NCBI GenBank assembly: GCA_049599475.1
Contig: JBMYOQ010000096.1
Coordinates: forward strand, 1-14,025
Origin: Opitutales bacterium
GTDB lineage: Bacteria > Verrucomicrobiota > Verrucomicrobiia > Opitutales > JABSRG01
Direction: 5' to 3'
Length of the DNA stretch: 14,025 bases
The position numbers and the translations under genes were made by a program. Positions 1,449-11,792 of the stretch are shown one piece after another. Every line of letters begins with the position of its first letter. The stretch's first letter is position 1. The notes under the pieces are model-generated. The model was given only the letters and a program-made list of their open reading frames with translations, made no database searches and was not told the origin of the DNA.

Positions 1449-2402
1449 TCAAAGTGCGATTCCTTGATCCTTCATCAATCCTTCGACTACTTGGTTTGAC
1501 TCGAGCACCTGCTCTTTCGTGAGCTTCGGACTGAGCTCTAGGATAAACGCCTGATCGGGTTTAAAGAATTTCTTGATTCCATCCCAATCGATTACACCTG
1601 TACCGATTGTTTGGTGGTCCTTGCCCGCTTTGGAGACATCATGAAGATGCCAGGCGGTGAGCCGGTCCTGCAGGCTCTCCAGGTGCGGAATATGATCTAA
1701 GAGCCCGAGCTGGTGCTTGATCTGGGCGTGGCCTGCATCGTGCCAGTAGCGCGCTTCCGGCACATCCCCAACCGCATCTAAGTAGGCATTCCACCCAGCA
1801 TCCATAGGGAGCTCAGTAAATCCCTCTCGATTCTCCAGACCGAGGATTACGCCCATATCCCGCGCTGCGGGCACGAGTGCCTTGATGCTTTCAATCAGTC
1901 GAGCCATGCCCTTCTTTACCGGTCTACGCATTTTGCGCATGGCTTGGTCGCGCAGTTTTACAAATTGAGCGTCGTCCCCAAGATGCTCCTTATTATCGAG
2001 GCTGTCTTCGTATTCACGGAATTTCCCCGTGGGATCTCCCCAGAAAAACCAGCAGCTACCCGAGTGCACGACCACTCGTTTGGCTCCAATACGCTGGGCA
2101 AACTGCAATGTGTTCACCGAGTGCCGCATCCACATGGAAAGCTCCACCTGACTGGGCCCAGAAGGCTGAAAAACATTGGGCGCAGGCCGCGTAACACCTG
2201 GAGGCAAGGGACAAAAATTGTGAATAGAACTCGCCTTGACCCAGCCTTCCTCAAAGGCCTTTAGGATCCCTGGAACGAGTGATAAACGAATACCGTGGCT
2301 GAGCTCTACATACTCGAAGCCAAGATCCACCATCTCACGCAGCATCTCATACCCGTCGTCATGACGTTGCGAACACCAGCAGCTAGAAAGAGAAATCGGC
2401 AT
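1449..2402 (-). CDS. Sugar phosphate isomerase/epimerase family protein (xylose isomerase-like / AP endonuclease 2 TIM barrel)
   Basis: 317-aa ORF with metal-binding motifs LGF..VEL, VVVHSG, GLENRE, WHDAGH, WHLHD, DHQTIGTGVIDW and ILE. Confidence 0.88.
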   Translation of the reverse strand: MPISLSSCWCSQRHDDGYEMLREMVDLGFEYVELSHGIRLSLVPGILKAFEEGWVKASSIHNFCPLPPGVTRPAPNVFQPSGPSQVELSMWMRHSVNTLQFAQRIGAKRVVVHSGSCWFFWGDPTGKFREYEDSLDNKEHLGDDAQFVKLRDQAMRKMRRPVKKGMARLIESIKALVPAARDMGVILGLENREGFTELPMDAGWNAYLDAVGDVPEARYWHDAGHAQIKHQLGLLDHIPHLESLQDRLTAWHLHDVSKAGKDHQTIGTGVIDWDGIKKFFKPDQAFILELSPKLTKEQVLESNQVVEGLMKDQGIAL

Positions 2403-2419
2403 ATCTTATAAAACTATAC

Positions 2420-2450
2420 AAAAAAGGGCTTTCCCATAATGGAAAAGCCC
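2420..2450 (-). terminator. Rho-independent terminator downstream of rpsU
   Basis: Minus strand GGGCTTTTCC-ATTAT-GGGAAAGCCC-TTTTTT: 10-bp stem with one G-U pair, plus U6, 24 nt after the rpsU stop. Confidence 0.85.
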
Positions 2451-2474: not shown

Positions 2475-2675
2475 CTACATGTTTTGGTAACGCTGGCGAA
2501 GCATATTTGTGAACGCTGCTACTTTCTTCTTGCGACGCTTAGTTTCGCAAGGTTTCTCAAAGTAACGCTTAGCGCGCACATCGCGGATCACACCTTCGCG
2601 GTCGAGACGTTTCTTCAAACGACGCAACGCACGCTCTACGGGTTCACCTTTACGGATTTTAATCTCAATAGACAT
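2475..2675 (-). CDS. rpsU: 30S ribosomal protein bS21
   Basis: 66-aa basic protein with GEPVERALRRLKK, G..RDVR..RYFEKP...RRKKK, the typical S21 signature. Confidence 0.97.
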   Translation of the reverse strand: MSIEIKIRKGEPVERALRRLKKRLDREGVIRDVRAKRYFEKPCETKRRKKKVAAFTNMLRQRYQNM

Positions 2676-2684
2676 ATCTTTAAT

Positions 2685-2699
2685 TCACCTCGCTTTCTA
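2685..2699 (-). promoter_or_regulatory. Extended Shine-Dalgarno element of rpsU
   Basis: mRNA 5'-UAGAAAG-C-GAGGUGA-3', ending 9 nt before the ATG. The plus strand TCACCTC(G)CTTTCTA equals the common 16S rDNA 3' tail TCACCTCCTTTCTA with one inserted base. Confidence 0.8.
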
Positions 2700-2806
2700 G
2701 GAAACGGAAGAGAAAGACGGATATTGATGTTTGGGTCAACCTCGAATGAAGCATACCGCCAAGATTGACCACCCGGCGTTACCTCAGCCATATCAAACAT
2801 TAATTT

Positions 2807-2846
2807 TGTATGGACAAAGCATACATAAGTACGCATAAAGCATACA
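2807..2846. promoter_or_regulatory. Tandem palindromic operator upstream of the MNT-HEPN pair
   Basis: TGTATG-GACAAAG-CATACA (2807-2825, perfect 6-bp inverted repeat) and AGTACG-CATAAAG-CATACA (2828-2846), offset by 21 bp. Exact direct repeat AAAGCATACA at 2816-2825 and 2837-2846. Confidence 0.7.
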
Positions 2847-2848
2847 CA

Positions 2849-3433
2849 TTGAGTGTTTTAGAACAGATATTTCCCAAAGTAAGAGCCGAGATTATTCGCC
2901 TTTTGTTCGGTGACTCTGAAAGGCAGCTTCATTTGCGAGATCTAGCCCGGTTGAGCGGTCTGGCAGTGGGTACTGTGCAGAGAGAAGTCGCGAAAATGCG
3001 GGAAATTGAACTAATCAAAGAATATAGAGATGGAAACCGTCTATATTTTAGGGCAAATCGCGAACATTCAATCTATTCTGAATTACAAAGTATTGCTCTG
3101 AAGACAACTGGCTTAAAGCCACAGCTTTCCAATGCATTTCGAGACCTAGCGGGAGTTGACCTCGCCTTCGTATATGGATCCTTCGCAAAAGGTTCGCCGA
3201 CTTCGGATAGTGATATAGACTTGTTCATAATCGGTTCAATAGGACTCAGGAAATTAGCTCCCGCGCTTCGGACCGTCGCAAACAAAATGAATCGCGAGAT
3301 TAATCCAACAGTCATGTCTCTAGAGTCATTTAGAGAGAAGTATGTAAATGAAAATGTTTACGTTAGGAATGTAGCAGAAAGCAAAAAACTCTGGATAATC
3401 GGAGCCGAAGATGAGCTTACAACAGTGGTATAA
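2849..3433 (+). CDS. Winged-HTH plus minimal nucleotidyltransferase (MNT) protein, putative antitoxin
   Basis: N-terminal HTH (LHLRDLARLSGLAVGTVQREV...GNRLYFRAN). Pol-beta-type motif GS-x10-DxD (GSFAKGSPTSDSDID, 3176-3220) and C-terminal REINP. The start is uncertain: TTG 2849 is preferred because the alternative ATG 2810 lies inside the operator repeats. Confidence 0.88.
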   Translation: MSVLEQIFPKVRAEIIRLLFGDSERQLHLRDLARLSGLAVGTVQREVAKMREIELIKEYRDGNRLYFRANREHSIYSELQSIALKTTGLKPQLSNAFRDLAGVDLAFVYGSFAKGSPTSDSDIDLFIIGSIGLRKLAPALRTVANKMNREINPTVMSLESFREKYVNENVYVRNVAESKKLWIIGAEDELTTVV

Positions 3434-3854
3434 AAACGGATGGCTGCGCCCTCATACAACAAATCGCCAGCAGATCGCAGATCTTTTCGCGATTGTTGAA
3501 CGAGATCTAGCAGATGCGAAAACCGCCCGTTTAAGCTCCGATTGGCAGTTCGGAATTGCCTACAATGCGGCTCTAAAATTATGCACGATTCTCCTTTATG
3601 CTGAGGGCTTCAGACCTGAAAGGAATTTGGCTCATTACCGGACACTCCAATCTTTACCCATCATCTTGGGAAAGACTAAACAAGACGATGCGGATTACCT
3701 AGATAGCTGCCGCGCCAAACGTAATTTGGTAGAATACGATATGGCTGGTCGAACCAGCAATGAGGAAGCTGATGAACTAATCGGCTTCGCAGCAGAGTTT
3801 AATGCCGATGTCGTCAAGTGGCTCAAAGCAACACATCCTAGTCTGCTGCCTTGA
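3411..3854 (+). CDS. HEPN domain protein, putative toxin (RX4Y-type motif)
   Basis: 147-aa helical protein overlapping the MNT gene by 23 nt, with GGAG 6 nt upstream of the ATG. Motifs DL..A, AYNAA, GFRP....AH and RAKRNLVEYD. Confidence 0.82.
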   Translation: MSLQQWYKNGWLRPHTTNRQQIADLFAIVERDLADAKTARLSSDWQFGIAYNAALKLCTILLYAEGFRPERNLAHYRTLQSLPIILGKTKQDDADYLDSCRAKRNLVEYDMAGRTSNEEADELIGFAAEFNADVVKWLKATHPSLLP

Positions 3855-10952: not shown

Positions 10953-11090
10953 GGAACCCTTTAGGCTAATTGTAAAAAGCTGACCATTCTTACTCACGCG
11001 TGTTAGAAAACGAAACAATTCACACTTTCATTAGCCATTATTCGCATTCCTGCTTTGACCTTGGGTAAAAACTTGCTTTTGGGTACCCTC

Positions 11091-11792
11091 ATGAAACCAG
11101 TCGTCGCTATTCTGACTCTGTTACTCATCATCGCCCTCGGCTTGATGTTCTACGCGTTCTCTCAGTCGCAGTCCTCCTCCGAGCTCGCGGATGCAGCTCA
11201 GTTAAAAGAGCAAGAAGCGCTCGACGCTCTCGCCAAAGAAGAACAAATGGCCAAAGATGCTGAGGCTGCTAAGAAGGCTGCCGAAGAAGCAGCACGCCTT
11301 GCAGAGAAGGCGGCCGCCGAGCAAGAAGCTCAGCGCAAGGCAGCTATCGAAGCTCTGAATGCTAAACTCGAACAGGAAGCCGCCGCTCGCGCCCAAGCCG
11401 AAGCCGATGCGAAAGCACTCGCCACGCGATTAGGCGATCTCGAGGCCGCAATGAAGGCCGCGGAAGCGCGCCAAGCTGAGTTGATGAAGAAGCAAGAGGA
11501 GGCGCTCAAGGCTGCTCAGGCCGAGGCTGAGAAGCCAGATCCAGAGGCCGAGAAGAAAAAGGCAGAGCTGGCCGCGCTCCAGGCATCTCTGGATCAACGC
11601 AAAGCTGAACAAGAGAAACTAGCCATGGAGCTCGCTGAAATGGAGCGCAAGCGAGAGGAAGCCTTGAACAATCAAATCGCCATCGAAGAAGCCATAATCG
11701 AATCTGGCGGCGAAGTCACCATCAAGGGCTACATTTTCCGTTCACCTAATTACAAGCGCCACAACGCGGTAGGATTCCGCGGGGAGCTGTAG
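11091..11792 (+). CDS. Hypothetical membrane-anchored coiled-coil protein (233 aa)
   Basis: MKPVVAILTLLLIIALGLMFYAF signal/TM segment, a long Ala/Glu/Lys/Gln-rich helical stalk, a short non-coiled C-terminal tail and a downstream terminator. Confidence 0.85.
   Translation: MKPVVAILTLLLIIALGLMFYAFSQSQSSSELADAAQLKEQEALDALAKEEQMAKDAEAAKKAAEEAARLAEKAAAEQEAQRKAAIEALNAKLEQEAAARAQAEADAKALATRLGDLEAAMKAAEARQAELMKKQEEALKAAQAEAEKPDPEAEKKKAELAALQASLDQRKAEQEKLAMELAEMERKREEALNNQIAIEEAIIESGGEVTIKGYIFRSPNYKRHNAVGFRGEL

Follow-up and report, generated by a model that had tools for sequence, protein, structure and literature searches.

An extended, bulged Shine-Dalgarno sequence at rpsU of an SD-poor Opitutales genome and its possible role in bS21 feedback

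In a genome of the Opitutales, rpsU, the gene for ribosomal protein bS21, is preceded by an extended Shine-Dalgarno (SD) sequence which, once a single bulge is allowed, gives the strongest pairing with the 16S rRNA tail of all 3540 predicted gene starts (-18.3 kcal/mol; next gene -16.4), although the genome as a whole is poor in SD sequences. The preferred reading, to which we give an even chance of being correct, is that the long helix between SD and anti-SD (ASD) competes with bS21, so that subunits lacking bS21 would translate rpsU better, as in Flavobacterium but without the pocket used there. Coordinates refer to the window, i.e., the whole stretch of 14,025 nt that was analysed; G000 denotes the genome holding it, G001 its congener, G003 a member of the sister genus and G006 a member of the same family. 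The initial annotation had placed the genome outside the Bacteroidota, in agreement with the labels Opitutales or Opitutaceae borne by proteins that are identical to the bS21 of same-family and same-order genomes. The features of the rpsU locus are collected in Table 1.

Table 1 Features of the rpsU locus, with positions in the window
Feature	Position	Strand	Evidence or remark
rpsU, bS21, 66 aa, single copy	2475..2675	minus	PF01165, E 3.7e-17
Extended SD, 3' half GAGGUGA	2685..2691	minus	pairs with 16S nt 1532-1538 including A1534; -11.5 kcal/mol alone (RNAduplex)
Bulged C in SD core	2692..2692	minus	present in congener G001 too
Extended SD, 5' half UAGAAAG	2693..2699	minus	pairs with 16S nt 1539-1545
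A/U-rich spacer, 9 nt	2676..2684	minus	G001 and G003 share the length, not the sequence
24-nt block identical in G001, flanks diverged	2683..2706	minus	sequence comparison
Candidate -35 hexamer TTGACC	2734..2739	minus	TTGAC also present in G001
Intrinsic-terminator-like hairpin, 11 pairs plus T run, directly 3' of rpsU	2426..2450	minus	largely kept in G001

The leader reads TAGAAAG-C-GAGGTGA (2699-2685, minus strand), followed by 9 nt and ATG, just as described in the initial annotation, and the pairing of up to 14 bp proposed there was reproduced as well: with the same-family tail, RNAduplex returned 13 bp and one bulged C (nt 1532-1544, in what we take to be the usual 16S numbering), and 14 bp with one nucleotide more. 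Judging from a predicted start site, the 24-nt block probably represents most of the rpsU 5' leader. Because a terminator-like hairpin lies 3' of the gene and a TTGAC hexamer upstream, rpsU is probably transcribed as a short, monocistronic mRNA; a consensus promoter scan upstream of rpsU gave no full promoter, and an Rfam search of the window no match. Small hairpins can be drawn in the leaders of G000, G001 and G003, but folding of the G000 leader does not surpass that of its shuffles (z 0.69), for which reason an SD-covering leader hairpin was dropped as a feature.

Several neighbours in the window are worth recording in their own right. Divergently from rpsU lies a nucleotidyltransferase and HEPN-like gene pair (2810-3854, plus strand) matching PADLOC PDC-M05A/B (E 1.5e-57 and 2.4e-44), a candidate system that is probably a recent insertion, since it was not seen at the same place in G001 or G003. 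The xylose-isomerase-like TIM-barrel gene (1449-2402, minus strand) follows rpsU on its 3' side in G000, G001, G002, G004 and G006, not in G003. Between nusA and htpG, an ORF (11055-11792, plus strand) encodes a membrane-anchored, coiled-coil-like protein of 245 aa with no Pfam match.

No 16S gene was found in G000 by motif search and Rfam, nor in G001, G003 or G004, and G002 contains only a 5' part; because G000, G001 and G003 hold no 16S, the tail of G006 was used for pairing. The 3' anchor motif of 16S occurs in 138 of 401 genomes of the order, and 33 of these loci were read in two sets (31 and 2). Tail plus trailer are identical in 29 of the 31 and in one of the two loci, one of the remaining loci ends after the core, one is foreign-looking and one differs in the trailer only, and the canonical core is present in all 33. 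To judge from these loci, the complementary tail on which the initial annotation had made its proposal depend is found throughout the order. Since the tail core is invariant in all 33 loci, covariation between SD and ASD has nothing to act on. As a side observation, the 16S 3' end at L053 (G108:C20, a short contig) is unlike the rest of the order and looks like mis-binned foreign rRNA.

With the 16S gene absent from both G000 and G001, the C might not be bulged at all if the genus carried a variant anti-SD in which one additional base pairs with it, orthogonal like ASD2/ASD3 of some Flavobacteriales. We regard this as very improbable. Such a 16S appeared neither in the genome contigs (five matches, none of them 16S) nor in the metagenome contigs (no match; near-window records may be missing), and comparison of the contigs of four runs with the same-family 16S 3' region revealed no ASD insertion among the matches listed, which mix many organisms and of which none is assignable to G000. 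Moreover, the core is canonical in every tail read, in G034 a canonical tail is accompanied by an imperfect rpsU SD, and canonical GGAGG is used by other G000 genes and by prfB.

For the genome-wide analysis, gene starts were taken from our own gene caller, mock windows were placed 25-40 nt upstream, and pairing energies are ViennaRNA and not free_scan values. The low SD use predicted in the initial annotation was borne out: FSD of G000 is negative both ungapped (-0.022) and with bulges (-0.108) over the 3540 starts, and likewise on the 902 most confident starts (-0.029 and -0.145). Gene starts have fewer SD-like matches than mock windows do, the positions preceding them are poor in G (0.15-0.18 at -13 to -4), and a small real SD class exists (88 vs 59 at -8 or stronger). 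The names nusA, infB, htpG, prfB and csrA are presumptive assignments here. Among the neighbours of rpsU that had been described as lacking a clear SD, nusA, rbfA, nrnA, the TIM-barrel gene and htpG indeed score 0 ungapped, and infB calls for a small correction, as a match of -7.1 kcal/mol lies further upstream; the HEPN gene reaches -4.1 kcal/mol and the DoxX gene -7.0, provided that it begins with the ATG at 261. Two further genes of G000 may be noted: a CsrA-like gene (G000:C100 12183-12464, plus strand) has an SD-like, GGA-rich leader that is among the strongest (-14.2 ungapped) and may be a self-binding site, and in a prfB-like frameshift site (G000:C15 near 40266, plus strand) the slippery-stop motif is closely preceded by canonical GGAGG. 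For comparison, an SD use of 4.8-7.2% of genes was reported for four Opitutae (supplement of PMC10783764), and for Verrucomicrobiales SD scarcity was described together with canonical CCUCC, ASD occlusion being raised as a question (PMC10798248).

The top rank of rpsU is unchanged by alternative gene starts and requires a mature 16S tail reaching nt 1543, as tail ends at 1540-1542 lower it to rank 7-9 of 3540. No mock window out of 3540 attains -18.3, and the bipartite SD pattern occurs once in 4.68 Mb. Without the bulge, rpsU is left with 7 consecutive pairs (-9.9 kcal/mol) and rank 40, and 25 mock windows are as strong. Relative to the published threshold of -13 kcal/mol with 9-13 consecutive pairs, G000 is too weak ungapped and lies beyond -13 once one bulge is allowed, whereas G003 is strong enough ungapped (-16.6). 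An exponential background of chance SDs has n=1 intercepts at -19.7 (ungapped) and -22.9 (bulged), beyond which no gene lies; rpsU is situated inside it, so the extreme outlier that had been expected was not observed, in contrast to F. johnsoniae, where rpsU is described as exceeding the exponential background by 8 kcal/mol.

Compared with other ribosomal protein genes, rpsU has the strongest SD, ranking first against the 40 others examined (25 confirmed by Pfam and a further 15, of which 13 bear presumed names; not the full set) with -9.9 vs -9.1 for the next gene ungapped and -18.3 vs -10.9 with bulges. Names of ribosomal protein genes outside the str-S10-spc-alpha cluster, except for bS6, bS18 and bS21, are those we presume. 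It might be argued that some gene must rank first and that one of 19,749 internal in-frame ATGs, the strongest of them, also reaches -18.2, but a chance match can scarcely account for a site at a gene named in advance that is kept in G001 and G003 and recurs in 7 families. Because rpsU was singled out beforehand by the work on Bacteroidota and then ranked first of 3540 in a genome of negative FSD, the extended SD is counted in favour of the circuit.

Conservation is strong at close range. The rpsU leaders of G000 and G001 share 24 identical nucleotides, compared with 5-16 for 19 other orthologous leaders, and 13 of 29 four-fold sites in the coding region differ between them. The extended SD of G003 is a different one and forms 11 consecutive pairs, and no such SD precedes rpsU in the three remaining family members that possess the gene; bS21 of the SD-less relatives is 86-92% identical to that of G000. 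Across the order, 109 of 196 genomes with a match were scored, a sample deliberately enriched for families f3 and f4 (G092 was excluded due to a contig edge, and G196 has -0.3 with its start corrected). Energies are bimodal: 21 genomes from 7 of 40 families reach -13 or beyond, 79 stay short of -6 and 9 lie in between, one of these owing to a mis-picked start. In family f3, all 10 genomes sampled carry the extended SD. Conservation in relatives, as foreseen in the initial annotation, therefore holds for the two nearest and fails for 88 of the 109 Opitutales. Outside the order, 23 of 30 Verrucomicrobiota (the best Pfam matches of 150), mostly from SD-using classes, possess an extended rpsU SD; in G404 and G473 (L213 and L212), which belong to another order of the same class, it contains a central mismatch and reaches about -15. 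Operon data were obtained for 17 SD-positive genomes, and in 16 of them rpsU surpasses every r-protein operon gene fetched.

Genome-wide FSD of relatives was sampled on 40-103 genes of each genome using an SD-blind caller, giving -0.03 for G003 (103 genes), -0.07 for G034 (70) and -0.09 for G404 (66), slightly positive values for G008, G009, G013 and G473, and +0.20 for the SD-using control G416. A homology-anchored FSD on 6-48 genes per genome was discarded because of its noise; for G006 it gave +0.36 on 14 genes, compared with +0.00 when the second method was applied to 46. Parsimony by hand on a 33-genome tree required 7 changes (one loss, four gains and two later losses) vs 11 losses from an SD-bearing ancestor; repeated gain of the extended rpsU SD in Opitutales is thus favoured, with some weak deep nodes and uneven sampling. 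The patchy spread fits a report that removal of the circuit carried no laboratory fitness cost in F. johnsoniae (PMC13000453).

Which part of the SD is retained is informative, too. At equal threshold, GTGA, which pairs with nt 1532-1535, is nearly fixed in strong rpsU leaders (42 of 44), whereas it is present in 6 of 22 among the other operon genes and in 4 of 19 among the other genes of G000, and perfect GGAGG occurs in only 20 of the 44; as these leaders stem from related genomes, the counts are not independent. The conserved block of G000 also extends 7 nt upstream of the SD, which is compatible with a leader that reads immature 30S subunits by pairing with the unprocessed 16S 3' trailer, so that late assembly intermediates would translate rpsU. 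Trailer-extended pairing indeed amounts to -24.4 in G000, -24.4 in G001 and -22.2 in G003 vs about -18.3, values obtained without a null model; most other SD-positive leaders, however, gain little from the trailer, and the start site may be what constrains the upstream bases. Nor are precursor subunits known to be efficient in initiation, and this explanation appears decidedly improbable to us.

On the protein side, bS21 of G000 aligns without gaps to F. johnsoniae bS21 (7jil_z), placing Phe55 on Tyr54. Phenylalanine occupies this position in all 109 Opitutales, and neither Phe nor Tyr does in any of 35 other members of the phylum (0/30 and 0/5), G404 and G473 having Lys there despite their extended SD; nor does Phe55 track the extended SD within the order, as the 88 SD-less Opitutales share it. 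The C-terminal domain of bS21 is basic (pI 11.6; order median 11.5), unlike the less basic domain of Bacteroidia. The ASD pocket of F. johnsoniae is formed by bS21, bS18 and bS6 (PMC7797042), and in bS18 of G000 its positions Phe50, Asn56, Gln58 and Lys/Arg37 are taken by Trp, Thr, Thr and Ser (offset 27, checked on Leu62 and Arg65 of PMC7797042); the Trp is confined to G000 and G001 (2 of 11 Opitutales parsed, the parsing having left out 9 of 31 genomes). The bS6 protein of G000 comprises 99 aa and ends four residues past the core without the helix bearing Trp100, Arg103 and Lys107, and it is equally short in correctly picked Opitutales rows. Among r-proteins in the PDB, it has significant or near-significant matches only to 9i5v (E 0.003) and to 7jil of F. 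johnsoniae (E 0.12). Of the four pocket features tested, one is thus present, the Tyr54 equivalent Phe55, and three are absent.

Some peculiarities of these proteins may be added. In G000, bS18 (G000:C15 8855-9049; L218 1356-1550) has only 64 aa with a short N-terminus and is encoded apart from rpsF, and bS6 (G000:C14 near 40170) is divergent (Pfam E 5.7e-10). The linkage of rpsF and rpsR is broken in those Opitutales and other class members that were checked, and kept in G407, G417, G418 and G456.

A full Bacteroidia-type circuit, with the ASD sequestered in a bS21/bS18/bS6 pocket and SD-blind ribosomes, would agree with the under-representation of SDs, Phe55, the Trp that replaces Phe50 of bS18 in G000 and G001, and the structural matches of bS6. 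It is improbable nonetheless, given the missing bS6 helix, the replacements at Asn56, Gln58 and Lys37 of bS18, the poor conservation of the bS18 Trp, and the conservation of short SDs. Moderate SDs are kept across the order at uL24 (19/20 genomes), uL23 (14/20), uL14 (14/20) and uL4 (13/20) (L178 6033-11102 and orthologues); these conserved SDs, together with the one at prfB of G000, indicate that the ASD can be used in Opitutales. In some Bacteroidia, rplW and rplX are reported to bear SDs as well. Since three of the four pocket features are lacking, the Opitutales case lies outside the Bacteroidia pocket type.

An ASD that is free would also suit a simply constitutive site, in which the long SD sets the rate or stability of the short monocistronic rpsU mRNA and bS21 is not sensed. 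Ordinary SDs conserved at several r-protein genes of the order and at prfB of G000, extended rpsU SDs in SD-using classes of the phylum, the absence of the Bacteroidia pocket, and an rpsU that is strongest in SD users such as Streptococcus salivarius (Table S1 of PMC9976891) all speak for this explanation, the foremost of the alternatives, which we consider unlikely, albeit deserving of some credence. It does not explain why rpsU alone, vs 40 other r-protein genes, is repeatedly given the longest helix, what preserves GTGA during decay of the GGAGG core, or how relatives with such similar bS21 manage without an SD.

Under the preferred reading of competition between helix and bS21, the selected extended SD would tie rpsU translation to a helix of 13-14 bp spanning the entire 16S tail, for which complementarity, rank and conservation provide the evidence. 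This helix would cover A1534 and pass the bS21 C-terminal helix, with Phe55 aligned where Tyr54 stacks on A1534 and presumably making a similar contact. On subunits without bS21, the long helix would form more easily and rpsU would be translated faster, whereby bS21 would limit its own synthesis. The gate would be bS21 alone, or bS21 with an unknown partner, rather than a deep bS21/bS18/bS6 pocket, and a weaker hold on the tail would explain both the tolerated bulge and the working short SDs at a few coupled r-protein genes. In F. johnsoniae, bS21 is seen by cryo-EM to be excluded by a 13-bp helix that collides with the C-terminal helix of the protein, and an SD mismatch not tolerated by the wild-type ribosome is accepted by pocket mutants in bS6 or bS18 (PMC13000457); to go by its protein sequences, the Opitutales subunit resembles these pocket mutants. 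Against the circuit, a single core mismatch abolishes initiation in wild-type F. johnsoniae (PMC13000453), and the SD-ASD helix coexists with bS21 in most bacterial structures (PMC13000457). Further points against it are the ungapped energy of only -9.9, the dependence of the top rank on a tail to nt 1543, the position of rpsU inside the background, the lack of any match between the occurrence of Phe55 and that of the SD, the basic bS21 tail, the usable ASD and the SD-using relatives with the same signature. The initial annotation had proposed that the same bS21 feedback circuit may operate here; low SD use, rank, conservation in the nearest relatives, the tail of the order and the placement in Opitutales support the idea in part, while outlier status, the ungapped -13 threshold, the 88 of 109 genomes and the pocket speak against it. 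Because outlier status, ungapped threshold, spread and bS6/bS18 pocket all failed to appear, 'same circuit' is too strong, and 'works like it' is the best guess.

As far as the available parts of the sources extend, bS21 autoregulation in Bacteroidota (PMC7797042, PMC9976891, PMC13000453, PMC13000457) shares with the present case the gene, an SD-poor genome, pairing at 1532-1544, the strongest r-protein SD, an aromatic residue at Tyr54 and a patchy distribution within the group, as among Bacteroidia orders. In contrast, the Opitutales helix is bulged in its core, whereas that of Bacteroidota has 9-13 consecutive pairs; rpsU is not far past background, and the tail core is invariant here, which leaves SD and ASD nothing to covary. 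The bS6 C-terminal helix and the bS18 signature residues are missing here as well, and the bS21 tail is basic. Chlorobia (PMC9976891) are similar in having an extended rpsU SD, an SD-poor lineage and a partial pocket, with autoregulation presumed; yet all Chlorobia possess the extended SD vs 21 of 109 Opitutales, and they lack Tyr54 but have 11 other contact residues, Opitutales being the reverse.

In Table S1 of PMC9976891, 'S21_Winner' designates genomes in which rpsU has the strongest r-protein SD, below -13 kcal/mol. It holds 360 winners, and four of nine among the matches listed are outside Bacteroidota, namely Mycoplasmoides pneumoniae, Streptococcus salivarius, Treponema putidum and Halobacteriovorax marinus; these are mostly SD-using organisms, in contrast to the SD-poor G000. 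Since such winners are tabulated, an extended rpsU SD outside Bacteroidota is not new as a signature. All seven Verrucomicrobiota rows among the matches listed, cultured members, are 'S21_Loser', and for ten additional names of genera or groups no row was among the matches listed. The survey text of PMC9976891, as far as available, covers Bacteroidota, with no discussion found of the non-Bacteroidota winners, and the available parts of PMC10798248 and PMC10783764 contain no mention of an rpsU SD in Verrucomicrobiota. Likewise, no paper on the subject was found in the open-access literature (PMC, bioRxiv), and neither the Opitutales case nor the bulged form nor the Phe55-only platform was encountered in print there. 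The published screen of 4,362 genomes is ungapped and misses bulged or mismatched SDs; G000 would escape it.

A bolder version of the preferred reading is possible, though in our view doubtful: the pocket may be unnecessary, the bS21 C-terminal helix (Phe55 on A1534) opposing the 1532-1544 helix being sufficient for feedback; the circuit may have arisen anew in Opitutales on three or more occasions; Phe55 may be part of a second, independent damping of the ASD in an SD-poor order; and the non-Bacteroidota rpsU 'winners' may represent one general sensor of ribosome composition. Among bacteria, specialised ribosomes are most clearly exemplified by the Flavobacterium circuit, and whether the ASD is occluded in other SD-poor groups such as Verrucomicrobiales was left as a question (PMC10798248). 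Opitutales, whose sister genera have near-identical bS21 and identical tails but differ in possessing the extended SD or not, lend themselves to comparison as a natural experiment, in which Phe at the Tyr54 position without the bS6/bS18 pocket separates steric gating by bS21 from pocket sequestration.
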